Positions 1,012-26,501 of a stretch of 64,000 nucleotides of DNA are shown piece after piece (within the stretch, counting starts at the first letter, position 1; every line of letters starts with the position of its first letter). Location of the stretch: NCBI GenBank assembly GCA_965230275.1, contig CBDDKO010000002.1, forward strand, positions 1,541,294 to 1,605,293. The letters are read 5' to 3'. The DNA is from Phycisphaeraceae bacterium. Lineage in GTDB: Bacteria > Planctomycetota > Phycisphaerae > Phycisphaerales > Phycisphaeraceae. The position numbers and the translations under genes were made by a program. The notes below the pieces were generated by a model that saw only the letters and a program-made list of their open reading frames with translations, ran no database searches and was not told the DNA's origin.

Positions 1012-1071
1012 AAGGCTCTATTCTGATGACGCAACTCTCGTGTCGATTAGCCAAGCAGCCATACACAGAAA

Positions 1072-12248: not shown

Positions 12249-12575
12249 ATGGATACCTCAATCGACAAGCTGATCCGACCAACCGACCCCAATCCTGTTG
12301 ATTGGGATGAACGGCTGACAGATGCCAACAAGCGGACTCGCAAGGGCGTCAAGCTCTCGATGCGAGAAGTCCGCTCCATGATTGAGATTTGGGGGCTACC
12401 TCCGTTCCTCACCGCAGATGAAGCCGCCAAGATTTCAAATCGATCAACGTCTGTCCTACGCAACCATGTCAGCGAAGGTCGCTTCCCCCGCAGCGCGATC
12501 GTCGGAAAGCCGTTGACCTTCGTTACGACCCGTTTCATCCAAGAAGTAGCGGCTCGATTGGGGGGAAGCGTATGA
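12249..12575 (+). CDS. Excisionase / MerR-like helix-turn-helix DNA-binding protein (putative)
   Basis: Internal ATG (12249) of ORF 11931..12575. PFLTADEAAKISNRSTSVLRNHVSEGRFPRSAIVGKPLTF resembles the Xis/AlpA-type HTH_17 pattern. Its stop overlaps the integrase start (ATGA at 12572-12575). Confidence 0.55.
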   Translation: MDTSIDKLIRPTDPNPVDWDERLTDANKRTRKGVKLSMREVRSMIEIWGLPPFLTADEAAKISNRSTSVLRNHVSEGRFPRSAIVGKPLTFVTTRFIQEVAARLGGSV

Positions 12576-13714
12576 GATGGGCAGACAGCCATCCAGTCGA
12601 AGGGACCGATCCGAAGGTCTTCATCGGCAGACCGACCCGGCGCGATCCGAAGACTGGTAAGCTCAAAGCGTCCAGCGTCTTTCATGAGCGTTACAGCCTC
12701 AATGGTCGCCAGGTCACCCGAACGCTTCGTACTAGCAACAAGAAGGTTGCGATCCGCCGGGTCATCGAGCGGCAGTCTAATGGACAGACTGAAACTCGAC
12801 CTCAAGCCTCTATTAGTATCGCTGAAGGGTTGGATGAGTACCTACGGGTATGCAGGGACAGGGATTTGTCCCCCAGGACGGTTCAGAAGTATGAGTTGGT
12901 CGTCCGAGGGATCAAAGAATCATTGGGCAGGCAGGCAGATGATCCCGTCTCGATCTTCAGCGAGCGGGAGTTCTGGTCGTACAACCGCTCGATGACGGAA
13001 GCGGGCACTAACCGGAAGACTCGATATGACCGCTTAATCGTTGTCAAACAAGCGATGAAATACCTGAAGCGGGTCGGGTATATCTCCACCTACCCCTTGG
13101 AGTCGGTACGCCTCTCAAAGCCTGAATCTAGACCGCAGCCTTGTTTTACCTTTGATCAGGTCCAAAAGCTATTGGAAATGGCTGACGAGTACCAGCGCCC
13201 GATCTTTGCGACATTTGCCTTTGCCGGTCTGAGATTTGGGGAGGTCCGAGACCTTCGATGGTCTGACCTGCTACTGGATCGGGGCGATACGGGCTTTATT
13301 CGAGTTTCCCGGGGCGGTTCTCGGGATATGCCCAAAGATCATGAGTCTCGCTTGATCCCCATCCACCCTCAGCTTCGCAGCATGCTGGATGAGGTAACGG
13401 GACAGAGCGGACGCATCTTCTATGACAGGGACGGGATTCGCCCGCTCTGCGAGAAGAAGCTGTTACTTGCTCTGAAGCGCCTCTGCGAGACATGCCGCTT
13501 CGAGAATGCTCTGAAGTTCAAGCTGCATTCGTTCAGGCATTTCTTCTGTTCGGCAGCAGCGCAGAACAATGTTTCGTACCGCTATGTAATGGCTTGGTTG
13601 GGGCATTCAGACAGCAAGATCGTTGATATGTACTTCCGCATGTTCGATGACGCCGCCGAACAGGCGATGGCTTCGATTGGATTTGGGGATAAATCGGAGA
13701 GAAATCAAGGATAG
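12572..13714 (+). CDS. Tyrosine recombinase / phage-type integrase
   Basis: 380 aa. The C-terminal catalytic signature is FAGLRFGEVRDLRW (Arg I) followed by LHSFRHFFCSAAAQNNVSYRYVMAWLGHSDSKIVDMYF (H-x-x-R ... W/L-G-H ... Y). An N-terminal SAM-like core-binding region is present. Confidence 0.9.
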   Translation: MRWADSHPVEGTDPKVFIGRPTRRDPKTGKLKASSVFHERYSLNGRQVTRTLRTSNKKVAIRRVIERQSNGQTETRPQASISIAEGLDEYLRVCRDRDLSPRTVQKYELVVRGIKESLGRQADDPVSIFSEREFWSYNRSMTEAGTNRKTRYDRLIVVKQAMKYLKRVGYISTYPLESVRLSKPESRPQPCFTFDQVQKLLEMADEYQRPIFATFAFAGLRFGEVRDLRWSDLLLDRGDTGFIRVSRGGSRDMPKDHESRLIPIHPQLRSMLDEVTGQSGRIFYDRDGIRPLCEKKLLLALKRLCETCRFENALKFKLHSFRHFFCSAAAQNNVSYRYVMAWLGHSDSKIVDMYFRMFDDAAEQAMASIGFGDKSERNQG

Positions 13715-13720
13715 AAGAAG

Positions 13721-13933
13721 GTGCGCACGACTAACACTGAGAATATGAATACACAACGTGGTATTGCTGATCAGCTTCAATCTGAGATCACGCTAGCGGG
13801 CATCAAAGTTGAGGTAACTATTGTCCGCATGACCCCAGACGAGGAAAGCCATTTCGATAGGGAACTGCAAATGGTGATCAGCTATTTAGTCCGCCAGATG
13901 CGCGGGCAGGAGATTAGTAAAGATGGAAGGTAG
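13721..13933 (+). CDS. Small hypothetical protein (70 aa, GTG start)
   Basis: This is the only ORF filling the gap between the two recombinase genes, and it overlaps the next start by 11 nt. No motif. Confidence 0.3.
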   Translation: MRTTNTENMNTQRGIADQLQSEITLAGIKVEVTIVRMTPDEESHFDRELQMVISYLVRQMRGQEISKDGR

Positions 13934-15917
13934 TAATAGCAAGGGTAGGTATGAGGGTAGGCGTGCGGTGCTGATGCCCCGCGCCAGCACGAAAAAGCAG
14001 GGGATTAGCGTTGAAGACCAGATTAAGCAGATGAGGGCGTTCTGCGCGCAGCATGGCATCACCGAGGTGGCGATCATTGGTTGCGCAGGTATATCAGCTA
14101 GCAAGTACTGGAGTCGTAGCGACTTCAAAGAGGCGCGAGATCGAAAGCGTACGCAGGATGACTTTGATCTCTTAGTCATCTACGACTCATATCGATTCTC
14201 CAGGGCTGGCATAATCAAAGGATCAAACGAAATCTGTGAACTCGAAGCTGAGGGCATCGATATCCTGCTTAGCACTGAGGATATTCTCGATGGTCCTGAT
14301 GGCGAAATGCAATGGGCCCAGAGGCTTGCCGCTGCCCATGCTCAAGCTCGTCAGATTAGCAAAACATCATGTAGGGGAATGCAGTCGTCAATTGAGTCCG
14401 GCCGCTCTCTGCCATGCAAACGAATACCGTTTGGTTTAGAGAAGGTGGTCCGGTATCCATCAGGTCAGATTAGGCATGTCATACGAGGCTTGCGTGATGG
14501 CTCGCAAGAGGTATATGACGGCGTGACTGGGAAACTTGTTCAATCTTTCCCATCCATCCAAAACGGCATGGGTTCCCGCTACATCAAGCAGAAAGAAGAT
14601 TTAGAAGACCTTCGCCCGGGTAATGAGGATGACATTGCCGTTGTCATTCAGATATTTACACGCAAGTTCATGGATGGTTGGGGTGCTCGCAGAATCGCTA
14701 AGGAATTAAACGAAAAGGAGGTTCTAAGTCCAAAGAATGGGCTATGGAGCCCAAGTACTGTTAATCATATCCTGAGGAATCCTGCCTATGTGGGCTACGT
14801 CATTGGTAATCAGAGTTCAGTAGCGATCTATTACCAATGCTCAAAAAATGAACCCCAGAAAGTTGTCAAAGATGCCCGGCATAGAACTTCAAAGCAGGCT
14901 CCCCCACAAAGAATACGACCAGAAAAAGATTGGACGATCATCGAGCAGCCATTGATGAATGATTTCTTGCCTGGTCAATTTCGAGAGGTTGCTCGGGAGT
15001 ATATTCGTCGTAGCAAACTCATGAGTGCAAAGCATGCTGGTAAATATACACATAATAGAAGCAGGCATACCAAATCGCCGTATCTGTTAACAGGAAAATT
15101 GATGGAAATCCGAAGCGGGCTCCGCATGAAAGGTCACAGTTGCGGTAAACAGAGGTATTACAGGATTGCAGAGGCAGATTCTCATCCAGGTGTAGTTACC
15201 CCGAAGCCCCATCAAATTCGATCTGAGGGTATTGATGCAGTTGTAACCAGCGCTATCCACGGCGTTCTGACCAAATCGAATAAATATCGAGATAAGATTT
15301 GTGAAGAGATCGACACCCAGCGTCGTGCTGCAAGCATCTCTGGGGTCAAAGCAGACCAACTAAGGGCGGAACGTAAGGCGCTGGATCAAGACTGCCGCTA
15401 TATCCATAGAAATCGGAAGGAATATGGGGAGGACATGACTCTCAGTCTGATTGAGGAGAACAGAGCGAGATGTGAGGAGATCGACTGTAAACTGGCTGAC
15501 GCATCACGCCAGGACACTATATGGGGGAAAGATATCGACAAAAAAGTTGATGAGCTATTAGCTCAGTTGGTGGAGGTGTCAGGTTGGGTCAAAGACGGGC
15601 CAAGCGCTTCTGTCAAGCGTTTGCTTCAAACATTGGTCAGTAAAGCAACCGTCAACACCAAAACCAAAGAGCTACAAGTCGAATTTCGAGTCCCCAAGAG
15701 CGTCTATGATAATCCGCAATCACTTTGTCTGGAGCCCGATTCAGCATTCCAAGTCGGGTACGAGACAAACTACGAGATGTCCCTGCCACTAACCAAACTC
15801 AGATTCATCTACCAAGACGGCAAATACTCCATGATCGAGCGTATCGACCCCAAGCCGCCAAAAGACACACTACCAACCCCGAAGAACACCGGCAAGAAGC
15901 CAAATGGACAGCAGTAA
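13923..15917 (+). CDS. Large serine recombinase (resolvase/invertase N-terminal domain + recombinase domain + coiled-coil/zinc-ribbon region)
   Basis: 664 aa. RRAVLMPRASTKKQGISVEDQ carries the catalytic-Ser motif of resolvase-type domains. The region ...PFGLEKV...RIAKELNEKEVLSPKNGLWSPSTVNHILRNPAYVGY... is the typical 'Recombinase' domain of large serine recombinases. Confidence 0.88.
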   Translation: MEGSNSKGRYEGRRAVLMPRASTKKQGISVEDQIKQMRAFCAQHGITEVAIIGCAGISASKYWSRSDFKEARDRKRTQDDFDLLVIYDSYRFSRAGIIKGSNEICELEAEGIDILLSTEDILDGPDGEMQWAQRLAAAHAQARQISKTSCRGMQSSIESGRSLPCKRIPFGLEKVVRYPSGQIRHVIRGLRDGSQEVYDGVTGKLVQSFPSIQNGMGSRYIKQKEDLEDLRPGNEDDIAVVIQIFTRKFMDGWGARRIAKELNEKEVLSPKNGLWSPSTVNHILRNPAYVGYVIGNQSSVAIYYQCSKNEPQKVVKDARHRTSKQAPPQRIRPEKDWTIIEQPLMNDFLPGQFREVAREYIRRSKLMSAKHAGKYTHNRSRHTKSPYLLTGKLMEIRSGLRMKGHSCGKQRYYRIAEADSHPGVVTPKPHQIRSEGIDAVVTSAIHGVLTKSNKYRDKICEEIDTQRRAASISGVKADQLRAERKALDQDCRYIHRNRKEYGEDMTLSLIEENRARCEEIDCKLADASRQDTIWGKDIDKKVDELLAQLVEVSGWVKDGPSASVKRLLQTLVSKATVNTKTKELQVEFRVPKSVYDNPQSLCLEPDSAFQVGYETNYEMSLPLTKLRFIYQDGKYSMIERIDPKPPKDTLPTPKNTGKKPNGQQ

Positions 15918-15991
15918 TATTCACATGAATTAACTGCGACAGGCTGACCTCTGGGTGCGGTGAGGGCATAATAGCCCGAGCCGCGCTCAGA

Positions 15992-16465
15992 TCAGCTAAC
16001 CATCTCATCGTCGGCGATGTCGTTTCCAATTACATAGGTTCTCCCCACCTTTGTGATGGACATAATTCGTCCATTCTGTTCCACGTGGACGCGGCATCCC
16101 AGATACTCAAAATCCCTGACTCGGGTGGAGATTTCCTTTGGGCTGTCAGAGCCGTATTTCGTGACCCTGCGACCATCCTCTGTAGTCTCGACGACTTGGA
16201 ACTTGAACCGCTCTGGATTCTCGCTGCCTAATCCGTCAAGCTCGTTCCGGTGGACGGCAGCAATCCAGTCAAGCGCAGCAGAGATGGTGTCAGTACGTCG
16301 ATCCTTATATAGACTCCTGAGATCAAGCAGCCCTGCGACGATCTTTGGGGTCAGCCTGGGATTATTGCGCTTCCGTATTTTGCCCATGACCGCCTCGATT
16401 CCTTGATGAACGGGATAGTCACACGTTGTCATGAGTAGGCTATGGGCTGATGTGATGTCCAGCAA
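15992..16465 (-). CDS. Hypothetical protein (up to 157 aa; alternative start MGKIRKR at 16387)
   Basis: ORF in low-GC DNA with no recognisable motif. Confidence 0.5.
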   Translation of the reverse strand: MLDITSAHSLLMTTCDYPVHQGIEAVMGKIRKRNNPRLTPKIVAGLLDLRSLYKDRRTDTISAALDWIAAVHRNELDGLGSENPERFKFQVVETTEDGRRVTKYGSDSPKEISTRVRDFEYLGCRVHVEQNGRIMSITKVGRTYVIGNDIADDEMVS

Positions 16466-16522
16466 GAGGGGGGCAGGTCAAAACGATGTCATACTAAGAT
16501 TGATATACTATCATCATCTGGC

Positions 16523-16963
16523 ATGGCCCGAACTAAGCAGACTAAACTGACCAGACATGTTTCCGATGTGCCGGAAGCTCGTCGTCGCATTATGCGCGCA
16601 ATCGGACAGAAAGATACAAAGCCAGAAGTCATTGTACGACAAATCCTGCATCAGCTAGGTTACAGATTTCGACTTCATGTACCAAGTCTACCAGGCCGAC
16701 CAGATATTGTTCTGCCTCGCCACCGCAAGATAGTATTCGTGCATGGATGCTTTTGGCATCAACATGGTTGTGGCATGGCCGGTACTCCGCATAATCGGAA
16801 GCAGTTCTGGAAAGATAAATTCCTGAGAAACAAAGAGCGGGACCGGGCAAACATCTCCTCGCTTCAGTCTGCCGGTTGGGATGTGTTGGTTATATGGGAG
16901 TGCGAGACATTAGACACGGATATGCTCCGTGAGAAATTGCTAACTTACATGTTGTCTAAGTAA
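16523..16963 (+). CDS. vsr: Very short patch repair endonuclease
   Basis: 146 aa. RRIMRAIGQKDTKPEVIVRQILHQLGYRFRLH...LPGRPDIVLPRHRKIVFVHGCFWHQHGC...FWKDKFLRNKERDR...GWDVLVIWECE shows the full Vsr signature (TKPE, D-I-V, FVHGCFWH, W-x-x-K-I-x-x-N). It is adjacent to a C5 methyltransferase. Confidence 0.93.
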   Translation: MARTKQTKLTRHVSDVPEARRRIMRAIGQKDTKPEVIVRQILHQLGYRFRLHVPSLPGRPDIVLPRHRKIVFVHGCFWHQHGCGMAGTPHNRKQFWKDKFLRNKERDRANISSLQSAGWDVLVIWECETLDTDMLREKLLTYMLSK

Positions 16964-17834
16964 CCGTCCATAACTCATGATGTTCGTCAAGTATCTTGGC
17001 TAGGTCATGTAAATTGTCTAAGTGAGATAGATAATTCTTGCGTATAGCTCGACATTTGTCTCGCGTTACACTTACAGATTCCAAGCGTTTATTTATGCCT
17101 TTTAGAACGATTTCGCCATCCCCTGATCTCTCCCAATCTCCATGAGCAAAGATATTTCTGTAATGGATAATATCATCGGGGAGCGTTTTTAAGATCGACT
17201 TGATAGCATCGATCTTCTGGCACATCTTATTGTCGTCCGCCTGAAAAGCCTTATCTCGCATGTCATCAAGAGCTCTCTTCACAAACACATGCTTCTTGGC
17301 AAAGTCGTACGGAGAATTATCACCCTTCACGATCTTCTCTAAGTAGAACTTCTTGCGCCCTCCAAGATAGTTTGCCATAATGTCAGCAAGATTATTCTCG
17401 ATCTTTATAGCCTCAGACACAATAATACCGCGCATCGTATTTAGATTGATAGTTCTTTCAATATGATTCTCGACAATCTCGCGTAGAGAGTCTTCCACAT
17501 CATTACGCTCTCGGTAATATACGCCATCTAGCTTTGTGTCGCCCTTGATGGCGTGGATACCATCCGCCGAATAGAACAATACTTCTCGATACCTTTCAAG
17601 CTTCCGAATCTGCTTGATGACTTCATCACCTTTGGTGCCCTGGAGGTTCCAGTCTACTGCAATGAGAGACAACTCTGGGTCGGGTAATATATCCGGCAAG
17701 TCTGGCGGCCGGTCGTAATACACCGACTGATACTGAAATCCTTCATCTTGTAACATGTCCTCGATCGCACTGCTAATAGACTCAACCCATTCGGGCGTGT
17801 CATCGATCCACATGATCTTGTAGGTGAGACTCAT
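16956..17834 (-). CDS. Receiver (REC)-like domain fused to a HEPN-like domain (R-x4-H) - putative effector of the dcm-linked cassette
   Basis: 292 aa. The N-terminus fits a CheY-like pattern: KIMWIDDTPEW (acidic pair D11/D12), LIAVDWNLQG (D61 at the phospho-acceptor position) and VLFYSADG (S89, 28 residues after D61). The C-terminal helical domain contains IIHYRNIFAHGDW (R226-N-x3-H231, codons 17159-17142), the R-N-x3-H form of the HEPN RNase motif. Its start overlaps the stop of the upstream ATPase gene (ATGA at 17831-17834). Confidence 0.6.
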   Translation of the reverse strand: MSLTYKIMWIDDTPEWVESISSAIEDMLQDEGFQYQSVYYDRPPDLPDILPDPELSLIAVDWNLQGTKGDEVIKQIRKLERYREVLFYSADGIHAIKGDTKLDGVYYRERNDVEDSLREIVENHIERTINLNTMRGIIVSEAIKIENNLADIMANYLGGRKKFYLEKIVKGDNSPYDFAKKHVFVKRALDDMRDKAFQADDNKMCQKIDAIKSILKTLPDDIIHYRNIFAHGDWERSGDGEIVLKGINKRLESVSVTRDKCRAIRKNYLSHLDNLHDLAKILDEHHELWTVT

Positions 17835-20206
17835 TTCGCAAAACAGAGTATGAACTCTGCCCCCTTGGCATAACCTTCATTAAATGTAACTGTGCCGCCT
17901 GATTGCAACATTAACGTCTTGATGTGATAGAGTCCAAGGCCTGATCCGTTTGTTGTAGTGAACCCAAAATCAAATAATTTCGCCGCATGCTTGGGGTCTA
18001 TGCCGCTGCCATTATCACGCACGCTCAAGACAAGCATCCCATCTTGAATATCCACCATTCGGAATTCGATCTTTGTTGCACCGGCCTTGCGCGAGTTGCT
18101 GATTAGATTGTCGATTATTATCGTAATCTCGATTGGTCGAAATGCAGCATCATAGGAAATCGTATTCTTAGTTTTGCATATGATCTCTACAGGATCGCCA
18201 TGACGCGTAAACACTATATCCGCACATACATTTTCTATGTACTCACGAATAAAGCCGACTAGATCAGCAGTCATCTCTGTTGCGCTGAGTACAAAATTCG
18301 CTTTGGTGGCAAATCTCGCAGTAGAATCGATCTTTGTGGCCTGGTAGCTGATCTTGCCCAACATTGCCTTGACGTATTCCGTTGTCAACGGTTTGTTAAG
18401 CTTTATCCGTCGGTTTATCTCTTTAATGTTGTTTTGTATAGTATCCGCAGCAATTGCTATGTGATGGTGAAGGCTGACTACATGTTCATAGTCTGTAGAT
18501 ATTACTGACTTCAGGAATAAGTTTTCTGTCTTTCTTCTGTCGGCTTCTTCCTCTGCTTCTTTGGTTTGACGACGAGACTCACGCGCTTCTGCCTCTGCCT
18601 TTGCCGCCTCTTCTTCAGCGGCTTTCGCCTTCTCAGTAGCTTCTTCTGCACGTGCCTGTGCCGAAGCGGCTTCTGCCTCAGCTTCATCTCTCGCCTTTTG
18701 CAATTTTCGTAGTTGGCGTCTAGCCCTACGTGCTTCGCGAGCAAGCTCGTCGCTTCCGGATTCCTCAGCAATACGCTCGAAATTCTGCAACAGGCCCTTT
18801 ACACTGGATTCGGAGATGTTCTCATATATATTTATGAAATTAGGGTCATATTGAATGTCAAGTACATCCTTGGATTTTGCCAGAGATGCAATGATTTCGA
18901 ATATCTTGGATTTGATTTCACCTTCTGAGGATATGTCGAGATCATTAAGGTCAATTGTCTTCCCCCATTTAATTACATCAACCGTAAACCTTTCCAAGCG
19001 ACGTAGGCAGTATGCCACAAAAAATTCTTTGAGCGCCGCAAATGCTCTATTCTTGATTAAACCGCCATCTCGACTACTGGTTTCCTTAAATTCATGGTTC
19101 TCGCCATTAATTTCGATTCGACCGATGAGTTCGCGGGAGCCAATGTAGCGAGCCGTGCCCTGTTGCTTTCGGCGGTCAATACCAAGCGAATCTTCACCTT
19201 CGTCTCCAAATGGGTAGATTCGGAATCCATTTTTGAATAAAAAGACCGATCCAAATTGAACTGCTGGGATGCCCATGCGGCGTGTGAAATATGCTTTAGC
19301 AGATGGGCTTAAGACAAATAGATATACCGATATGTTCTTGAGAAGTTCGCTGTAAGGATTTGATTCCACGAGTTCATATATGAGAACACCACGATCTTCT
19401 AGTCTTGTTGTGATCTGTTTACCATCTTCGGATATATGTACAACAATACTAGTTGTGCGAACCTCAAGGTCCTCAAACAAGAAGTTCGTAATCTTTCCAT
19501 TGACACGCTCCCACGGCGCATCCTCGGGAACCTCCTGATCCTTATGGCGCTCTTCTGCTACTTTAAGATGAATAGAAAAGCGCCTGCTATCATTACCTTG
19601 GTTGGGATTGATCAGGCGTTCCAGAGACCTTCTTAGCTTGAGTAGTTTATCGCGACCCCAGTCTTCTCTTAAATTACCTATTACAAGGAGCGTTCCAGAG
19701 TCAAGCTTGTGCTCGATTGACCTTAAACGGGAGTAATCTACGGGTACGGAACGAAACTCTCTCTGGTCATCAGCTTCAAATGACTCCCAGTCAATATTGA
19801 TGTGTTGATATTCACTCCGCTCCCGCTTTTTAGAATACAACTTAAGTGTGCTTCCAAGCTTGTCACATGAAAATCTGCCAATCCCCTTTGCGCCAGCCTT
19901 AATGCGATTTGATTGGATTTTATCTCGATAATCTTCAATGCCGTGTTTTTTGGCTGAATAGGCGACAAACAACCACTTCTCAAGGATGTCATTTCGATCC
20001 ATCCCTTTGCCGTTATCTTTTATCAACAGCTTTGGCTCTTCGCCATAGATGTCTATGAACTCAATATCGACTCTTGTTGCATGAGCATCAAAGGCATTTT
20101 TGACTAGCTCAAAGACAGCAATAATGTCATTGGTAATGAGTTCCTTGCCAATGATGGTCTTTAGTGCAGAGCTGATACGAAAATGTGGAGCTTCTGTTTT
20201 AGCCAT
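17831..20206 (-). CDS. Dual Bergerat-fold (GHKL) ATPase: N-terminal MORC/Hsp90/MutL-like HATPase + coiled coil + C-terminal histidine-kinase-type catalytic domain
   Basis: 791 aa. N-terminal N-box is FELVKNAFDA (E33, N37, D40), G1 box is IKDNGKGM and G2 is GAKGIGRFS. A central Ala/Glu/Lys coiled coil follows (RDEAEAEAASAQARAEEATEKAKAAEEEAAKAEAEARESRRQTKEAEEEADRRK), then an H-rich helix (VSLHHHIAIAADT). The C-terminus has a complete HK catalytic core: N box IDNLISNSRKAGA, G1 VRDNGSGI, F box FDFGFTT and G2 GSGLGLYHIK. Its start overlaps the dcm stop by 8 nt. Confidence 0.75.
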   Translation of the reverse strand: MAKTEAPHFRISSALKTIIGKELITNDIIAVFELVKNAFDAHATRVDIEFIDIYGEEPKLLIKDNGKGMDRNDILEKWLFVAYSAKKHGIEDYRDKIQSNRIKAGAKGIGRFSCDKLGSTLKLYSKKRERSEYQHINIDWESFEADDQREFRSVPVDYSRLRSIEHKLDSGTLLVIGNLREDWGRDKLLKLRRSLERLINPNQGNDSRRFSIHLKVAEERHKDQEVPEDAPWERVNGKITNFLFEDLEVRTTSIVVHISEDGKQITTRLEDRGVLIYELVESNPYSELLKNISVYLFVLSPSAKAYFTRRMGIPAVQFGSVFLFKNGFRIYPFGDEGEDSLGIDRRKQQGTARYIGSRELIGRIEINGENHEFKETSSRDGGLIKNRAFAALKEFFVAYCLRRLERFTVDVIKWGKTIDLNDLDISSEGEIKSKIFEIIASLAKSKDVLDIQYDPNFINIYENISESSVKGLLQNFERIAEESGSDELAREARRARRQLRKLQKARDEAEAEAASAQARAEEATEKAKAAEEEAAKAEAEARESRRQTKEAEEEADRRKTENLFLKSVISTDYEHVVSLHHHIAIAADTIQNNIKEINRRIKLNKPLTTEYVKAMLGKISYQATKIDSTARFATKANFVLSATEMTADLVGFIREYIENVCADIVFTRHGDPVEIICKTKNTISYDAAFRPIEITIIIDNLISNSRKAGATKIEFRMVDIQDGMLVLSVRDNGSGIDPKHAAKLFDFGFTTTNGSGLGLYHIKTLMLQSGGTVTFNEGYAKGAEFILCFAK

Positions 20207-21566
20207 CGTTTACCATTCTACGAAGAATCCGTCCAGCGAATTCAGCGAACAGCGGTGGTACAGCATTGCCAATCTGGGTGTAGCGTGGAACAGCCTTTCG
20301 TCGCAGCAAGCCACCGGTGGTGTAGCTGCCTCTAAATTCGAAACAATCCGGGAACGATTGGATGCGCGCGTATTCTCGTACAGTTAAGATGCGGGGTTCG
20401 CAGTAATGGACATAATCGTCAGGAATACTCATCAAGGTCGGGGCTGGACATGCCTCGTCTAAGAGGGTTGTGTTGCGCTTATTTAAACCATATTTTTCGC
20501 GATCTCCGCCCTGAATCCTAACGTTCGGTTTAGCACTACGAATTACCGTTTTAAATGCTTTTGTTGTAGATGCGGTATGCTTTGCGTATCTGTGGCTATC
20601 GGGACTGGCGCTACAGTCGATGGCTTGCCTCATTAATTTTTGGAAGTTCGTGCGGGCAGGGCCATAAGTACCCGCTTCGAATGAGGGGCTATCTAATGAA
20701 ATGACTGTGCCGTGCCTACGTTCAAGATCGCTGATCGCAGCATAAGTGGAGGGTCTTTTTGATATGCCCTTATCCAAAAGAAATGACTTACGCTCAGATT
20801 GTAGAAGTTCAAAGAATGTATCTGCGTTACCTTTTCGTGTAGCTACAAGTATGAACCGTTCGCGCCTCTGAGGGACACCGAATCTAGAAAAGTTAACAAT
20901 ATCAGCAGAGGCATCGGAATATCCTATGGACTTCAATCTATCGATTATTCGATTCGAGTATGAGGTATGTCTCCTGTTGCTTTTATCGAATGGAATCGTG
21001 AAGCCGCGCACATTCTCGAAAAGAAGAATATCGGGCTGTACCAATTCAACAAAACGCAGGTAAGAGGAGCAGAGGGTATTACGAGGGTCAGATCGTTGCC
21101 GCTTACCCTCGGTAGAAAATCCTTGGCAAGGTGGTCCGCCAACAACGAGCGGTACTTTGCCACGTAGCATTACGAGTTGCTGGCGATATTTCCGTAGGAC
21201 CGAGTTTATGTTGTGCTCCGATACTGGAAGCCAGCGAGGCCAGTGGAAGTGATTCTCCCGGTCAATAAGGTTATGGCGTAGTGTAGAAAATGCCATGTCG
21301 CTCTTCTCAATTGCGAACATGCCTGTCCAGCCAGCCTTCATCATGCCATAGGACAGACCCCCGCAGCCAGCGAAGAGATCGATGTAAGTAAGGGCGCTAT
21401 TCTTGGCTGTCGATGCCTTAGAAGACCGACGCCTGTCAACCCGCTTTCTAGACGTGCTGCTGATGTTCTGTCTCCTATTAGTGCTACGGCATCCGGATGG
21501 TCTAGTCGTATATCGACCCCTGTAAGTATTACGCATGAGGGAAGATAGATCAAATCTAGATATCAT
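20199..21566 (-). CDS. dcm: DNA (cytosine-5)-methyltransferase
   Basis: All canonical C5-MTase motifs are present: I YIDLFAGCGGLSYG, IV GGPPCQGFS, VI LLFENVRGF, VIII PQRRERF and X GNAVPPLF. It has an Arg/Ser-rich ~60-aa N-terminal extension, so the true start may be further downstream. Confidence 0.93.
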   Translation of the reverse strand: MISRFDLSSLMRNTYRGRYTTRPSGCRSTNRRQNISSTSRKRVDRRRSSKASTAKNSALTYIDLFAGCGGLSYGMMKAGWTGMFAIEKSDMAFSTLRHNLIDRENHFHWPRWLPVSEHNINSVLRKYRQQLVMLRGKVPLVVGGPPCQGFSTEGKRQRSDPRNTLCSSYLRFVELVQPDILLFENVRGFTIPFDKSNRRHTSYSNRIIDRLKSIGYSDASADIVNFSRFGVPQRRERFILVATRKGNADTFFELLQSERKSFLLDKGISKRPSTYAAISDLERRHGTVISLDSPSFEAGTYGPARTNFQKLMRQAIDCSASPDSHRYAKHTASTTKAFKTVIRSAKPNVRIQGGDREKYGLNKRNTTLLDEACPAPTLMSIPDDYVHYCEPRILTVREYARIQSFPDCFEFRGSYTTGGLLRRKAVPRYTQIGNAVPPLFAEFAGRILRRMVNDG

Positions 21567-21620
21567 AGCCTATGCTTGAGTAGCATTGTTGGGATAGCAG
21601 CATGGGTCCGGATAAGTTGA

Positions 21621-21896
21621 CTATTCCTGAGGCCTGAATGGCGTCATCCGCTCACATTCCTCCGCTTGTGACTCAACCAGGCTAACCCGCCTCTCCTCAA
21701 ATTCCTCATACCGCTCCCTGACCGCCTCTTTCAACTCCTCCGGCACCCCCTCCTCCCCCACGACCATCATCATCACTTCTCTCAGCTTCGCTTCAGCTAT
21801 TTGAGCTAGGAGTTTGTCGTATCTGCCCTTGGTTATGGCTATCCGGAGGATGATCTTGGGGTCAGTCTTTTTATCTGAAGAATTGGATTTGCCCAT
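21621..21896 (-). CDS. Small acidic helical hypothetical protein (91 aa) upstream of dcm
   Basis: ORF on the same strand, 55 nt upstream of dcm. Sequence is Glu/Arg-rich and helical (EELKEAVRERYEEFEERRVSLVESQAEE). No known motif recognised. Confidence 0.45.
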   Translation of the reverse strand: MGKSNSSDKKTDPKIILRIAITKGRYDKLLAQIAEAKLREVMMMVVGEEGVPEELKEAVRERYEEFEERRVSLVESQAEECERMTPFRPQE

Positions 21897-22028
21897 CGCA
21901 GGACCTCCTGGGGATGAGGGGGAGGTTGATGGGTATGTGTTCGACGGGAGGGGGTCGGGTTCCTCCTAAGATTGTTGGCAATCATGTTCGCGCGGTAGAC
22001 TGTAAGGGTCATTCTTAGGGGACATCTC

Positions 22029-23453
22029 ATGGCAAAAGCGAAAAAGCGACGGTCAGTATTTGCGAAAGTGGTTGATACCAAGAAGCAGCATCCACGATTC
22101 AAAATCCTCAAGAACAGGAGGACTCTACGACCTGCGCGTTGGATGTTGAATGAGATATATAAGACTTACGAGGATATTGACGGTAATTTTCTAGAGCAGT
22201 TCCAAAGCAATGGATTTGATGCCCGCTACTTCGAATTATATCTCCACGCCTATTTCTCTAGAACAGGATTTCAGATTGATCGACCTAAGCCTGCTCCCGA
22301 CTTCATCGTTGAACGCGACAGCATCAAGGTTGCAGTCGAAGCGACAACTGTTAATCCGTCAACTACTGGGGCTGTAGCGAAGCATGGTAAGAAGATTAAG
22401 GAGATGTCGCAGGACGAATACTTGGAATACCAACATCAGGAGCTGGCCATCCGTTTTGGTGGACCACTCGTCACCAAACTAAAAAAGAAGTACTGGAATA
22501 AGAGGCAGTGCAAGAATCTGCCTTTGGTTCTAGCAATCGAAGCATTTTATGATGAAGAATCGCTCGCATTTACTGACCTTGCCTTGAGTCGGTATGTGTT
22601 TGGGATAGATCAAACGGGTAAATGGTCAAAAGCCGGAAAACTCAAAATAAAAAGTAAGAAAGTCACGAAGCACAAGCTAGGGAGCAAGGTAATCCCCTCT
22701 GGTTTCTTCAAATTACCAGACTCAGAACACATAAGCGCCATTATGTTTACCAACAGTGGAACAAATGCCAAGTTCCTCAGGATGGGGTTCCAGCACGGCA
22801 TCGATAACGACAGAATTGTCCTGGTTCGACAAGGAAAGTCGTATGACTTTAACCCAGACGCCATCGATCCGTGTCACTTCTCATACAACCTTGATTGTCC
22901 GCCATTGGTTGAATCATGGGGGCAAGGTTTAGTCGTGCTGCATAATCCAAACTGTATCCATCCAATTCCACGAGGATATTTTGCTGGCGCTGTAGACCAT
23001 TATATGGACAGCAATCGTATGGCATCTGAGTTGACGGGCTGGCATCCCATGTCATCCCATACTTTTATCTTTGACCTTAATGAGGCAAAAGCCAAGGTGT
23101 CAAAGCTTCCTATTCGAACTCCATCAATCGCAGTTGCATCAATACCAAAACGAGAGTTCCAGGCAATAATTGGAATTAACCATGACAACAACCCTATTCT
23201 AGAAGAATCGGGCTGGTTCACGGATGAGACCACCTCATTCTTAAGCGTATTGTTTCGAGATAAAGTGGACAATGATTGGGGAATGGCGATTCTCGCCAGA
23301 GATTCGCTAAGCAGATTCCGAGCAATTGAAACCAAATCTAGCCTTAGTAGCCGTGAAGAAGCGAGAGACGAAATGTATCGAGCGATGGTGAAGTACTTGG
23401 CAAGCCCTAAGAGAATATTCGAGCAAGGCGATGAATTTGATGGCAGAGCTTAG
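22029..23453 (+). CDS. Hypothetical 474-aa protein, possible PD-(D/E)xK-like nuclease core at N-terminus (very tentative)
   Basis: Divergent from the dcm operon. YFELYLHAYFSRTGFQIDRPKPAPDFIVERDSIKVAVEATTV has an E...PD...(V)E-x-T spacing reminiscent of PD-(D/E)xK, but the Lys is not canonical. The rest is unrecognised. Confidence 0.55.
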   Translation: MAKAKKRRSVFAKVVDTKKQHPRFKILKNRRTLRPARWMLNEIYKTYEDIDGNFLEQFQSNGFDARYFELYLHAYFSRTGFQIDRPKPAPDFIVERDSIKVAVEATTVNPSTTGAVAKHGKKIKEMSQDEYLEYQHQELAIRFGGPLVTKLKKKYWNKRQCKNLPLVLAIEAFYDEESLAFTDLALSRYVFGIDQTGKWSKAGKLKIKSKKVTKHKLGSKVIPSGFFKLPDSEHISAIMFTNSGTNAKFLRMGFQHGIDNDRIVLVRQGKSYDFNPDAIDPCHFSYNLDCPPLVESWGQGLVVLHNPNCIHPIPRGYFAGAVDHYMDSNRMASELTGWHPMSSHTFIFDLNEAKAKVSKLPIRTPSIAVASIPKREFQAIIGINHDNNPILEESGWFTDETTSFLSVLFRDKVDNDWGMAILARDSLSRFRAIETKSSLSSREEARDEMYRAMVKYLASPKRIFEQGDEFDGRA

Positions 23454-23495
23454 AGTATTAGTATTTGTTGGTTTGGGAGGACACGGAAAACGTCA

Positions 23496-24047
23496 GTGTA
23501 CTATACCGCCACCGGGTTCGGGAATCACGTCATGGCAGAAGAACCACAAGCAGAATTAGAGAACAATGAACGCCCCCCAGCATCTGAGCTAGAGGTTAAG
23601 TTGTTGGATCAATTCCTCAAGGATGGCACCATTCCATCGAAGGAAGATCGCAACAGGCGTATAAGAGAAATGCGTGACATATTTGTTGATCATGTCAAGC
23701 GCAAGTCAAAACATGAGGGCGTCAAATCCAATTCTATTTATGAACAAACTCAACTCTGGTATGCCGGGATGACTAGTAAAGACCCGGAAAAGGATCGGAG
23801 GCCAAAACATAATAACGACGAGAAGATGAACTCAACAAAGCACTGGATGTCGCTACCAGCACCCGATTTTGAAACGGCGTGGAAACTTGAACAACTGTTA
23901 CAAGTCGAGTATGGATTTCATAGGGGGAAAGATGACGATGATGAGAAAAGCCTAAAACGACCAGCCCCAAAGGATTCGTTGCATAGCGTGTATATTTTCT
24001 ATGCCCCTATGAATTCTGCTGACGAAGTTCGTAAACGGCTCCTTTGA
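23496..24047 (+). CDS. Hypothetical protein (183 aa; alternative ATG start at 23532)
   Basis: ORF in low-GC DNA. Charged, lysine/aspartate-rich sequence with no recognised motif. Confidence 0.45.
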   Translation: MYYTATGFGNHVMAEEPQAELENNERPPASELEVKLLDQFLKDGTIPSKEDRNRRIREMRDIFVDHVKRKSKHEGVKSNSIYEQTQLWYAGMTSKDPEKDRRPKHNNDEKMNSTKHWMSLPAPDFETAWKLEQLLQVEYGFHRGKDDDDEKSLKRPAPKDSLHSVYIFYAPMNSADEVRKRLL

Positions 24048-24243
24048 GTCTTTGACGATATTGTTCATATCGATCATTCAATCGTTTGTAGTCATCTTCA
24101 TTTGTGCAAAGTGTTCGCATGTCTCTTAGCGCAATGTCTGCTAAATCCCAAATATGCTTGAAGTATTGAAAGTTATCCCAATCTGATTCTAGAAGATCAA
24201 GTCCCAGGCAGTCATTGTCTGTAGAGTTTGTTGTCATGGTCAT
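24007..24243 (-). CDS. Hypothetical protein (78 aa)
   Basis: ORF convergent with the previous gene, with a 41-nt overlap. No motif. Confidence 0.4.
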   Translation of the reverse strand: MTMTTNSTDNDCLGLDLLESDWDNFQYFKHIWDLADIALRDMRTLCTNEDDYKRLNDRYEQYRQRLKGAVYELRQQNS

Positions 24244-24506
24244 CAGCTAGCCTCCATATTGGCAATGATATCACTCTTGGCCTTCGATACACCCTTGGTA
24301 TTTCCTTTGTTGTAGTAGAAAAATTCATACTTAGTCGGTACGATCTCCCGTTCCCGATTCTTTCCCGATCTCAGGGATGACAAATCCCCCCTGAATCATG
24401 ACGGATCATGATGAAACCGAGAGTGAATTTAAAGGTTAACCTGCTCTGGTGCAGGGCTTAGAGGTTATAATCGCTGATTGGGGACTGTGGGGCTGGATTT
24501 GCTGGA

Positions 24507-24525
24507 CGAATCCCTCCCTCTCCGC
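24507..24525 (+). repeat. 19-bp direct repeat copy 1 (CGAATCCCTCCCTCTCCGC), tRNA 3'-end-like; putative att site
   Basis: Exact 19/19 match with 28112-28130. The sequence looks like the end of a T-loop (..CGAAT), a T-stem 3' half (CCCTC) and an acceptor 3' strand (CCTCTCC + G), as in a tRNA starting GGAGAGG (Ser/Leu-like). A shared TGGATTT lies 6-9 nt upstream of both copies. Confidence 0.6.
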
Positions 24526-24533
24526 TTTACCAG

Positions 24534-24577
24534 AACCCGCTTCCCTAAGCCTTTAGGTAAGCGGGTTTTGTGTTTTT
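24534..24577 (+). terminator. Rho-independent terminator
   Basis: AACCCGCTT (24534-24542) pairs with AAGCGGGTT (24559-24567). An inner CCTAA/TTAGG extension is present and the stem is followed by TTTTGTGTTTTT. It sits immediately 3' of the tRNA-end-like repeat. Confidence 0.7.
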
Positions 24578-24803
24578 GGCCATGGGCTATATACCCCGGT
24601 GGACCAAAATTGGACCAATATCCAGCCCACATACGAGCCTTGTATGTTTCAGGTGCTGCCTTTCGTTGGCATGTGTGGTTGTCTTCTGCACAACCTCGAC
24701 CCAGTTGATGTTGCGGTCGAATAACTTCTGTGTTCGCTTGCTCTACCTCAGCCACGGGAACTCATAACATAGACCAAGATGGGGGTTATTCCTGCGAACG
24801 TAG

Positions 24804-26054
24804 ATTAATAGCCTCCCGACTCTCAAGCGCGGCAACGCAGCTAATTCAGAGCGGACGTTTACATATGATGATGGCACGACATGGAATCCGCCGGCGGGAT
24901 TGCAGGCTGAAATTAAAAAGGACACGGTCTCCTACGACATCGATGAAGACACGAACGACGAGACGGTCGAGGTGTACGTATTAAGCCTGACCGGACGCGG
25001 CCAGGGACACCAGTACACGTTCTGGGGGTTCGAGACCCAGATCCCGGAAGCCATGCGGGGCCGCATCTACAAGAAGACCGATCGCTACGGCGAGGAAGAG
25101 CTGACCTACGCACTACAGGACGCCCACTTTCACATCACCACACTAGCCGACACCACTGGCGCCGCCGTCGAACGCTGTAGTTACACTCCCTACGGCGAAC
25201 AGACCATCCTCGATGCAGACTTCACCATTGACTCGGGCGGCTCAGACTACAACTGGACTCATGGCCACCAGGGCCTGATGCATGATCCTGAGACCGGTCT
25301 GATCCAAAACCGATATCGAATACGTCACGCACTGCTAGGACGGTGGCTGCACAGGGAGCCCTTAGGGTATGTGGATGGGATGAGCCTGTATCAGTATGTA
25401 AGATCGCAACCGCTCTATTTTGTTGATCCGACAGGACTTGAGGCAGAGGTTATCGACGAAGCATATTATGGTGGGACGGGTGAGTTATATGTTCCCGAGG
25501 GTTGGTGGGAAGAAGCGAATGCCCTAGATGAGATGGTAGAGTGGGTGCAGCCAGATAAATTCCCTGATCCGGATTCAAATAATAAATGGTCAAGGGAGTA
25601 TCGTGAAAACTTTGCGCACTATGTAAAGGATATATACGCCACATACCAAGACATCTTTCAGGGACAAGACGGGTGTTGCGTGTTGGATCCTTGCACCTTG
25701 GCCGCCCAGTGGATGGGTGAATCATCGTGGGGCACGTCGGGACTATCGAAAGATGCGTATAACTTTGGCGGTATTAAAGGGGAAGGACCTGCAGGCCATT
25801 ATGACTCGGAGACGGGCGAGCATTTCGACGGGCAAGATGTGACTATTGTGGATGAATTCAGAGCATATAATAATATACTAGAGTTCATGGATGACTACAC
25901 TCGCTTGATATGCAAGTATGATATATATGAAGACGCGAGAGGAAAATCTGGTGAAGAGTATTATTCAGCGATTAAAAGTGCAGGATATGCGACAGATCCC
26001 AGTTATGTAGATAAGAATATGCAACTATACAATCAGCTTGGGTGCGGTCAATGA
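24804..26054 (+). CDS. Orphan RHS C-terminal fragment: last YD repeats + RHS core end (DPxGL) + C-terminal glucosaminidase-type peptidoglycan hydrolase toxin domain
   Basis: The frame is open from the stop at 24801 and the ORF track starts at TTG 24900. It shows a YD-like repeat (ERTFTYDDG), then CSYTPYGEQT...RYRIRHALLGRWLHREPLGYVDGMSLYQYVRSQPLYFVDPTGLE, the RHS core terminus. Next comes AAQWMGESSWGTSGLSKDAYNFGGIKG...FRAYNNILEFMDDY...SAGYATDPSYVDK, which fits mannosyl-glycoprotein endo-beta-N-acetylglucosaminidase / FlgJ-like domains. No full-length RHS shell lies upstream. Confidence 0.8.
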   Translation: MNSLPTLKRGNAANSERTFTYDDGTTWNPPAGLQAEIKKDTVSYDIDEDTNDETVEVYVLSLTGRGQGHQYTFWGFETQIPEAMRGRIYKKTDRYGEEELTYALQDAHFHITTLADTTGAAVERCSYTPYGEQTILDADFTIDSGGSDYNWTHGHQGLMHDPETGLIQNRYRIRHALLGRWLHREPLGYVDGMSLYQYVRSQPLYFVDPTGLEAEVIDEAYYGGTGELYVPEGWWEEANALDEMVEWVQPDKFPDPDSNNKWSREYRENFAHYVKDIYATYQDIFQGQDGCCVLDPCTLAAQWMGESSWGTSGLSKDAYNFGGIKGEGPAGHYDSETGEHFDGQDVTIVDEFRAYNNILEFMDDYTRLICKYDIYEDARGKSGEEYYSAIKSAGYATDPSYVDKNMQLYNQLGCGQ

Positions 26055-26458
26055 AAACCTTGATAACCTATTTATGTATTTTAGTAGCAGTGGCCTGTCT
26101 TAATTCATGTAGCGATGCTTCCGAATCTGAGGTTCAAGTACAAAGCGAACAACTAATAATTGAATTGAATAATGTGCCGGAAGAGTGGAAGATTCTTGTG
26201 CTTGATGCAATTGATGGGCTGTCTCTAGCAAATGAAACTCGCTATAGCATCATTGTAGAAAAAAACGAGGATTGGCATTTTCTGGGACATATAGAGTTTA
26301 ACCTGTATGAGGATGGACCGGATATGGTACATCGGATTGATACATATCGATTGACCAGAACAGGGAAATTATATGTGATGAATCTGTTTGCAGATGATTT
26401 AGACGATGTGTGGCGCCCTATTCAGGTCTGTAGTGGCCCAGCAGATTGTGAGCCATAA
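26051..26458 (+). CDS. Putative immunity lipoprotein for the RHS C-terminal toxin
   Basis: The ATG overlaps the toxin stop (ATGA at 26051-26054). MKTLITYLCILVAVACLNSCSD is a signal peptide with a lipobox (LNSC). The small AT-rich gene directly after a polymorphic toxin tip is the usual immunity position. Confidence 0.6.
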   Translation: MKTLITYLCILVAVACLNSCSDASESEVQVQSEQLIIELNNVPEEWKILVLDAIDGLSLANETRYSIIVEKNEDWHFLGHIEFNLYEDGPDMVHRIDTYRLTRTGKLYVMNLFADDLDDVWRPIQVCSGPADCEP

Positions 26459-26501
26459 AATGGCATTAATTCGAGCTGATCACGGGCGTGGAAGCGTTGC
26501 T

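Follow-up and report, generated by a model that had tools for sequence, protein, structure and literature searches.

A 64,000-nucleotide stretch of DNA from a Phycisphaeraceae bacterium (assembly GCA_965230275.1, contig CBDDKO010000002.1, positions 1,541,294 to 1,605,293 of the forward strand; hereafter the window, whose first letter is position 1) carries an operon of three overlapping genes on the reverse strand. In order of transcription they encode a C5 cytosine DNA methyltransferase, a histidine kinase and a response regulator in which a receiver (REC) domain is followed by a HEPN-like C-terminal domain. The methylase gene overlaps the start of the kinase gene by 8 nucleotides, and the kinase stop codon overlaps the regulator start by 4 (ATGA). 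An earlier note on this DNA had described the regulator as a receiver fused to a HEPN-type domain, and it overlooked the features by which the system is defined, namely the C5 methylase and the overlapping double-GHKL kinase. The best explanation of the locus, to which we assign a probability of about 0.5, is that the regulator is the response-regulator member of a mobile three-gene cassette driving a methylation-sensing phosphorelay to an RNase.

The response regulator and its receiver domain

The regulator gene (16956..17834, reverse strand) is an uninterrupted open reading frame (ORF) encoding 292 aa, and it is supported by an AlphaFold2 (AF2) model and by a family of homologues. Its two key sites lie exactly where the earlier note had placed them, as confirmed by mapping from the ORF: the phospho-acceptor D61 is encoded at 17652-17654 and the RNIFAH motif at 17142-17159, both on the reverse strand. 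A word-indexed homologue search with the single protein returned two relatives only (60% and 54% identity), and an exhaustive search with a profile of the C-terminal domain recovered 129 representative clusters at E<=1e-3. Nearly all of these clusters are 270-330 aa long with the C-terminal domain at about residues 120-290, which points to a common two-domain architecture; among them the domain is only ever fused to this REC. Conservation was assessed in an alignment of 84 sequences with 20-35% identity to the window protein and in a second sample of 68 further homologues from species-representative genomes. D61, Y88, R135, G136, R226 and H231 are invariant in the former (84/84), and A230, K181, W9, D12, N227 (82/84), R265 (81/84) and H271 (77/84) are kept at 90% or more. 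In the genome homologues, D61, Y88, R135 and G136 are present in 68/68, R226 and N227 in 66/68, H231 in 67/68 and R265 in 66/68. A tblastn search of the regulator against plasmid and phage records gave no match. The closest structural match in BFVD, A0A8S5LY51, is a 298-aa "response regulator" from a Myoviridae contig and may be a family member.

The REC domain comprises residues 1-128 (17451..17834, reverse strand) and is delimited by Pfam Response_reg, Foldseek and column conservation. PF00072 matches residues 8-92 of the window protein at E=8.4e-5 with 23.1 bits, under the 30.2-bit cutoff, and 70 of the 84 family members match it at E<=0.01 (best E 5.7e-12). An AF2 model built from only 3 sequences reached a predicted local distance difference test (pLDDT) score of 65 with an unusable C-terminal domain, and a full-length model from the 84-sequence alignment was used instead (pLDDT 95.6; predicted template-modelling score, pTM, 0.91). 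In this model, residues 4-128 form the (beta/alpha)5 receiver fold that the earlier note had proposed, in the order b1-a1-b2-a2-b3-a3-b4-(short a4)-b5-a5, with strands at 4-10, 34-40, 55-61, 84-89 and 105-109. Foldseek against the PDB placed receivers on top (PmrA, ArcA, FleR, VicR and others), with target-normalised template-modelling scores of 0.65-0.77 and root-mean-square deviations of 3.0-3.9 A. Of the acidic pair D11/D12, the first position is D or E and the second is D in 77/84 sequences; S89, which closes b4, is S or T in 82/84, and D61 is kept in all 152 homologues of the two samples (84/84 and 68/68). The regulator is a response-regulator-like protein in which the REC fold and the phospho-acceptor pocket are intact. 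In the model, helix a5 (110-128) leads almost straight into the first helix of the C-terminal domain (131-157).

The C-terminal domain

The C-terminal domain (residues 131-292; 16959..17444, reverse strand) is a probable HEPN-superfamily nuclease domain, to judge from its AF2 secondary structure and from weak family matches. It is helical, about 165 aa long and, as the earlier note had held, not a DNA-binding output domain, a description that the present analysis supports. The modelled helices span residues 131-157, 161-169, 178-198, 202-215, 218-231 and 258-284. The Rx4H motif R226-N-I-F-A-H231 (R226 codon 17157-17159, H231 codon 17142-17144) closes helix 218-231 and is followed by a beta-hairpin (233-245) and the long last helix. 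According to a survey of HEPN domains (PMC3710099), the Rx4-6H motif closes helix 3 and leads into the loop before helix 4. Its arginine is mostly followed by N, D or H, helices 2 and 3 are often separated by an insert, and in Csx1 the motif is succeeded immediately by a beta-hairpin. The number and order of the modelled helices are compatible with a HEPN four-helix bundle carrying an insert, and the predicted position of the motif, the asparagine after the arginine and the modelled hairpin after the motif would fit that description.

The motif in a single sequence is weak evidence, because shuffles of the regulator protein yield R[NDH]x3H in 10% of cases (Rx4-6H in 82%). The above-chance signal is instead the conservation of the motif across distant homologues. 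It is not the only strongly conserved element of the domain, as the earlier note had it: the methionine before R135-G136, R135 and G136 themselves, E141, E146, K181, R265, H271 and N274 are conserved too. Column conservation thereby marks a second basic/His pair, R265-x5-H271, in the last helix (17022..17042, reverse strand), which might contribute to an interface or to the active site. In the 68 genome homologues, the position of H271 is occupied by H in 48 and by Y in 16.

In the window protein itself, Pfam matched nothing within the last 170 residues. Family matches were therefore sought by scanning 48 C-terminal domains one by one against Pfam, PADLOC and NCBIfam. The sub-threshold Pfam matches were HEPN_Apea (4 members), HEPN_MAE_28990 (4), HEPN_RiboL-PSP (3), Abi_2 (3) and pEK499_p136 (2). 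Apart from CREPT (3 members), which also appeared as helical noise in the PDB searches, every Pfam family with three or more matching members was a HEPN family. Sub-threshold PADLOC matches were led by Cas13-ApeA (8.2e-5), CARF_HEPN (2.2e-4) and Csx1 (5.7e-4) and included several further Csx1/Csm6 models, RTasHEPN and Cas13, and NCBIfam cas_csm6 weakly matched 3 members. When clade consensus sequences were compared with Pfam, one matched HEPN_Swt1 over most of the profile at E 0.018, and the rest was noise. Taken with the conserved motif, these matches make membership of the HEPN superfamily probable, and the domain is inferred from sequence, with moderate support, to be a HEPN RNase.

An all-helical bundle behind a REC with an invariant, probably exposed histidine could also be read as an HPt-like phosphorelay intermediate, in which H231 (or H271) would take the phosphoryl group from D61 and hand it to a further receiver. 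We consider this highly improbable, since no Hpt family match was found in the 84 or the 48 members, the HxxKG signature is lacking, and the loci have no conserved second receiver or downstream partner. Moreover, an invariant Arg-Asn pair five residues ahead of the histidine is a feature of HEPN and not of HPt domains.

The histidine kinase and the methylase

The 791-aa kinase (17831..20206, reverse strand) was identified by Pfam, NCBIfam and a profile match to HK853. It consists, in order, of an N-terminal GHKL ATPase of the MORC/MutL/HgiDII-like type, a conserved middle region, an Ala/Glu-rich coiled coil, a DHp domain and a CA domain; Pfam places HATPase_c_3 at residues 29-151 and HATPase_c at 693-789. 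The N-terminal ATPase is nearest to the N-terminus of the BbrUII/HgiDII restriction enzymes (NCBIfam match, E 1.6e-20), MutL and Hsp90, and its motifs ExxxNAxDA, DxGxG and GxxGxG are conserved. At the other end, the kinase profile aligns with the DHp and CA domains of Thermotoga HK853 at E 1e-15, with an invariant histidine falling on the H-box histidine of SHELRTPL. This residue, H581 (codon 18464..18466, reverse strand), is the sole invariant histidine of the DHp region among four kinases of 42-53% identity and, from its conservation and the HK853 alignment, is the predicted phospho-histidine. The H-box sequences are SLHHHI, NHLI and QHLL, i.e., H-[H/L]-[I/L], and the CA boxes DNLISNS, DxGxG and GxGLGL are conserved in the kinase alignment. 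Based on the domain order and the HK853 match, the partner of the regulator is therefore a soluble histidine kinase in which a second, MORC-like GHKL ATPase, and not a ligand-binding domain, occupies the position of the sensor. The coiled coil (residues ~495-565, window 18500-18750, reverse strand) is rich in Ala, Glu and Lys, is about 21 residues longer than in the related loci L006 and L007, and attracts only spurious low-complexity matches in Pfam.

The first gene of the operon (20199..21566, reverse strand) encodes a Dcm-type C5 cytosine DNA methyltransferase (Pfam DNA_methylase, E 1.2e-48; TIGR00675; PADLOC MTase_II, E 2.6e-78). The first 55 or so residues of its ORF (21400-21566, reverse strand) are a basic, Ser/Arg-rich extension ahead of the FAGCGG motif region, and translation may in fact start at a codon downstream of the ORF start. 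Convergent to the regulator, and overlapping its 3' end by 8 nucleotides, lies a gene for a Vsr very-short-patch repair endonuclease (16523..16963, forward strand; Pfam Vsr, E 1.6e-26; TIGR00632, E 5.6e-42), a repair nickase that is accessory to the 5-methylcytosine (m5C) methylase. Pfam scans found no restriction endonuclease domain in the cassette or in the neighbouring genes. The cassette is thus not a standard type II restriction-modification (R-M) system: the methylase is present, and a cognate endonuclease was not identified.

Distribution and variants of the cassette

A kinase alignment was used to scan one genome per species, and relatives were found at no fewer than 467 loci (a lower bound) in at least eight phyla, namely Planctomycetota, Bacteroidota, Verrucomicrobiota, Chloroflexota, Pseudomonadota, Bacillota, Acidobacteriota and Patescibacteria. 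Among the best 80 of these at least 467 loci, from which the following counts are taken, a gene with the REC and the C-terminal domain lies directly downstream of the kinase in 68 of 76 assessable loci, and a Dcm gene of the same subfamily (phmmer E mostly 1e-96 to 1e-172) lies directly upstream in 71 of 77. All three genes are present in 64/80 loci and Vsr in 14/80. In both close relatives of the regulator (60% and 54% identity), the C-terminus of a kinase gene overlaps upstream, and the distant metagenomic regulators of about 25% identity (L004-L008) also stand in Dcm-kinase-regulator operons. One of these, L006 (4906-9028), is adjoined by HNH_2, Peptidase_M78, DUF4411 and AbiEii genes in a setting like that of a defence island. 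Ten IMG/VR contigs, predicted to be viral or proviral, carry the kinase (L094-L103), eight of them with the full set; these cassettes are often near contig ends, and several have the methylase gene downstream in the reverse orientation. Two copies look decayed: in L051 (6001-9189) the kinase and the regulator are each split into two ORFs, and in L002 (1-626), from a coral metagenome, in-frame stop codons precede the kinase C-terminus.

In eight loci (L030, L032, L037, L043, L058, L067, L076 and L078), the gene after the kinase encodes a REC of the same subfamily that stands alone and is 124-141 aa long, or 222 aa in L067. In L058, L076 and L078 the order is Dcm, a restriction endonuclease (REase) of the HpaII family, kinase and REC; in L030 and L032 it is Dcm, an MvaI/BcnI-family REase, kinase and REC; and in L043 an HNH gene follows the kinase/REC pair. 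The REase-containing operons with REC alone mark the kinase/REC module as an accessory of m5C R-M systems. The HEPN-like domain is found where an REase is not present, as if the two were alternatives. The same variants, which lie inside complete type II R-M operons, also suit a regulatory rather than an immune role, in which the kinase and regulator would tune expression of the linked methylase or R-M system (e.g., by mRNA cleavage) or answer a stress unrelated to foreign DNA. A related Pectobacterium pair was indeed noticed through its induction during host infection and competition. Such a role is nevertheless very unlikely in our judgement, as the regulator is without a DNA-binding output and the cassette is mobile, island-borne and patchy across phyla and viral contigs, like defence or addiction modules.

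The plasmid relatives of the kinase match its N-terminal half only, and their partners are other REC-X proteins without the C-terminal domain. Four of them, on plasmids of Enterobacter, Deinococcus, Rhizobium and Hymenobacter (L089-L092), encode more distant double-GHKL "sensor histidine kinases" that are followed by REC-like or other proteins with differing C-terminal regions and are linked to N6 or Eco57I-type methylases, HNH, an MBL-fold hydrolase, or dcm and vsr. This variety of partners suggests a wider modular class of double-GHKL kinases.

A proposed mechanism and its alternatives

The analysis establishes how the domains are arranged, that residues of catalytic type are conserved and that the operon recurs. 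The cassette looks like an R-M system in which the DNA-cutting enzyme has been exchanged for a phosphorylation-switched, RNA-cutting one, and a possible mechanism can be proposed. The methylase would mark the host's own DNA, and the N-terminal ATPase and middle region of the kinase may engage DNA and respond to unmodified target sites, the trigger being incoming phage or plasmid DNA or loss of the methylase. The kinase could then autophosphorylate on H581 and pass the phosphoryl group to D61 of the regulator. Phosphorylation of the REC may cause dimerisation or a rearrangement that is transmitted through the junction of a5 with the following helix, and the R226/H231 site would thereby be assembled into an active, metal-independent RNase. 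Cleavage of RNA would arrest the cell, with abortive infection or post-segregational killing as the outcome. Exchange of phosphate between kinase and regulator is predicted from the gene overlap, the co-occurrence, the intact H, N and G boxes and the Asp pocket. That phosphorylation activates rather than inhibits the predicted RNase is a speculation drawn from the context.

More generally, the cassette might serve immunity or addiction in the manner of an R-M system: a paraMORC-type kinase would read DNA methylation and phosphorylate a REC-HEPN RNase, RNA cleavage and growth arrest would replace DNA cleavage, and the HEPN-like domain and REases would be interchangeable effectors of one widespread sensor module. 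We advance this fuller picture only tentatively and regard it as rather doubtful as a whole. If true, the kinase would be the first of the paraMORC type with DNA modification as its signal. If the proposed mechanism is right, the cassette would unite epigenetic self/non-self marking, two-component phosphotransfer and the RNases of HEPN abortive infection, subjects hitherto investigated apart from one another. It would also offer a compact, genetically tractable three-gene system in which H581, D61 and R226/H231 are the positions for point mutants.

Several results weigh against the proposed phosphorelay to an RNase. For the output domain, no member reached a curated HEPN cutoff in any library (best Pfam E 0.0044), and the usual acidic Ex3[KR] element of HEPN domains is not evident. 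When the C-terminal domain profile was compared by hhalign with a 21-sequence DUF86/HepT alignment, the motif alone was aligned, with a probability of 0.4%. PDB sequence-profile searches with 3 and with 48 C-terminal domains returned no HEPN protein and only coiled-coil noise, and the top 50 Foldseek matches of the full-length model in the PDB and BFVD were all REC-driven and hence uninformative on this domain. For the receiver, position 110, usually a conserved lysine, is Arg in 67/84 sequences (80%) and Lys in 9/84 (11%), and helix a4 is almost gone, with about 3 residues in the AF2 model; with a REC that is non-canonical in these respects, dimerisation through a4-b5-a5 on phosphorylation is not to be assumed. 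The variants with REC alone indicate that the kinase/REC pair can work without the C-terminal output. Finally, both the DNA methylation state as the kinase signal and the DNA binding of the kinase are speculative, being predicted from context. The DUF86/HepT alignment had been seeded from the HepT gene of locus L087, where a classical MNT-HepT toxin-antitoxin pair (580-1204, reverse strand; DUF86, RNLLTHFY), together with Vsr fragments, precedes the cassette by about 4 kb.

The HEPN-type domain announced in the earlier note is upheld in part: its Rx4H motif is conserved in a HEPN-like position and its weak HEPN matches recur, but no curated threshold was reached and the DUF86/HepT comparison failed. 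In the comparison with HEPN families that the earlier note had proposed, the recurrent weak matches were to HEPN, and Foldseek with the full-length model gave REC matches only. The lack of a significant HEPN match and the failed DUF86/HepT comparison lend weight to the alternative that the C-terminal domain is not a nuclease and is instead a family-specific helical adaptor or regulatory domain that binds, e.g., the kinase, the methylase, DNA or another effector. Its conserved Arg, His and Lys residues would then have a binding or structural role, and its RNxxxH likeness would be convergent. It agrees with this alternative that the motif arises in 10% of shuffles, that the domain is found fused to this REC only, and that the REC-only variants and the neighbouring HNH or REase genes allow a killing function to lie elsewhere. 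On the other hand, R226, N227 and H231 are kept in nearly all homologues at 20-30% overall identity, the motif stands at the canonical HEPN secondary-structure position, the recurrent weak matches in three independent libraries point to HEPN-containing families, and most cassettes are without another candidate effector. We therefore regard a non-nuclease domain as a minority prospect, though one to be taken seriously.

The sign of the switch could also be the reverse of that in the proposed mechanism. The HEPN-like RNase would then be intrinsically active and held off by constitutive phosphotransfer, and infection, DNA damage or loss of methylation would stop kinase signalling or turn the kinase to a phosphatase mode, which would free the RNase. 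The anatomy and context are equally compatible with this arrangement, and R-M-associated HEPN domains have been proposed to be restrained by R-M subunits and freed on their neutralisation (PMC3710099). The phosphorelay defence system Detocs needs DtcB to buffer leaky phosphorylation, and the window cassette is without a buffer REC, which fits phosphorylation as the safe state. Detocs is, however, also the only tested analogue, and there His and Asp mutants lose defence, so that phosphorylation activates; no sequence feature of the cassette decides the sign. We hold the reversed sign to be unlikely, though an alternative to be reckoned with, and retain a phosphorylation-activated RNase as the better account.

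The surrounding island

The cassette lies inside a low-GC island (12572-27409) that comprises two recombinase genes, the cassette and further ORFs; the GC content is 44-50% at 14-27 kb and 56-63% in the flanks. The recombinases, which are encoded at the island's edge, are a tyrosine integrase (12572-13714, forward strand; Pfam Phage_integrase) and a large serine recombinase (13923-15917, forward strand; Pfam Resolvase and Recombinase). Between the serine recombinase and Vsr is a 157-aa ORF (15992-16465, reverse strand) without a Pfam match, which was not beside the cassette in the other loci inspected. The remainder of the island contains two ORFs without a family match (22029-23453 and 23496-24047), a glucosaminidase-domain protein (24900-26054) and an rve_3 integrase fragment (26726-27409). 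A transposase remnant is found near the cassette, and no tRNA gene was found in the 64-kb window.

Comparison with known systems

The closest published counterpart, which the earlier note had not taken into account, is a very similar R-M-linked pair that Bellieny-Rabelo et al. (2021, PMC8011034) characterised by bioinformatics. Its kinase-like protein has HATPase_c_3, HEF_HK and HATPase_c domains and a linkage of 91.6% to a Response_reg_2 protein. That pair adjoins C5 methylases, with Vsr downstream of the response-regulator-like gene and HNH_2 and MvaI_BcnI nearby (PMC8011034). The present cassette shares with it a soluble kinase of HATPase_c_3, DHp and HATPase_c, the adjacent response-regulator-like gene and the linkage to a C5 methylase, and the context of Vsr, HNH_2 and MvaI_BcnI is seen around present cassettes as well. 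In contrast, the H-box is H-[H/L]-[I/L] here, whereas in the 2021 elements the core histidine is followed by Glu or Asp, and the present REC is recognisable by PF00072. Neither PF19191 (HEF_HK) nor PF19192 (Response_reg_2) matched any of the window proteins, the 84 family members or the related kinases. The present family is either the same family beyond the reach of those Pfam models or a sister family. The 2021 report is silent on HEPN and RNase and assigns no output domain; if the RNase reading is true, a function would be given to the output side of these R-M-linked elements resembling two-component systems, and if the C-terminal domain is not a nuclease, the cassette would be another member of the class already described.

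Detocs (DtcA/DtcB/DtcC) is a validated phosphorelay-gated immune effector system in which the effector domains are swappable and defence needs the His and the Asp. Like Detocs, the cassette pairs a histidine kinase with a response regulator whose DNA-binding output gives way to a killing effector, which in the cassette is predicted. The two differ in that the sensor of the cassette is a GHKL ATPase, its effector is HEPN-like and not PNP, and it has a DNA methylase as an obligatory partner. The PADLOC Dtc models matched neither the kinase nor the regulator, and no stand-alone buffer REC gene is present in the window cassette; membership in Detocs was rejected on both grounds. The kinase relative is absent from the PADLOC models searched.

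The arrangement of an N-terminal alpha/beta regulatory domain ahead of a C-terminal Rx4-6H domain also recalls the CARF-HEPN proteins Csm6 and Csx1 and the KEN domains of Ire1 and RNase L, kinase-linked HEPN RNases (PMC3710099), all of which work as dimeric RNases. Csx1 offers the further likeness of a beta-hairpin after the motif, and the weak matches are mostly to Csx1/Csm6 and Cas13 models. Unlike these proteins, the regulator carries a phospho-accepting REC in place of a CARF domain that binds cyclic oligoadenylate or of a protein kinase, and it has no significant sequence match to them: HMM and hhalign comparisons of the C-terminal domain profile with the single Thermus Csm6 and TTHB144 sequences gave no match. 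TtCsm6 and TTHB144 carry Rx6H, in contrast to Rx4H in the regulator family. The earlier note had called a phosphorylation-gated RNase an unusual effector logic; such gating is plausible here, but its novelty was overstated, because Detocs is already a phosphorelay-gated immune effector and KEN a kinase-linked HEPN.

On the sensor side, the kinase resembles the paraMORC and BbrUII/HgiDII-type GHKL ATPases (Iyer et al. 2008, PMC2292703) in its intact N-terminal GHKL motifs and its linkage to a cytosine methylase and Vsr. The ATPase of the cassette is fused to a DHp and histidine kinase core and is taken to signal to a receiver, whereas theirs works with a helicase or an endonuclease. The 2013 survey of HEPN domains lists no REC fusion among those given (PMC3710099), and the REC-HEPN combination was not found in full-text literature searches, whose coverage excludes subscription journals. 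Kinase/regulator pairs linked to R-M systems and phosphorelay-gated immune effectors are thus already known, and the cassette of a methylase, a double-GHKL kinase and a REC-HEPN-like regulator is what the present analysis adds to them.

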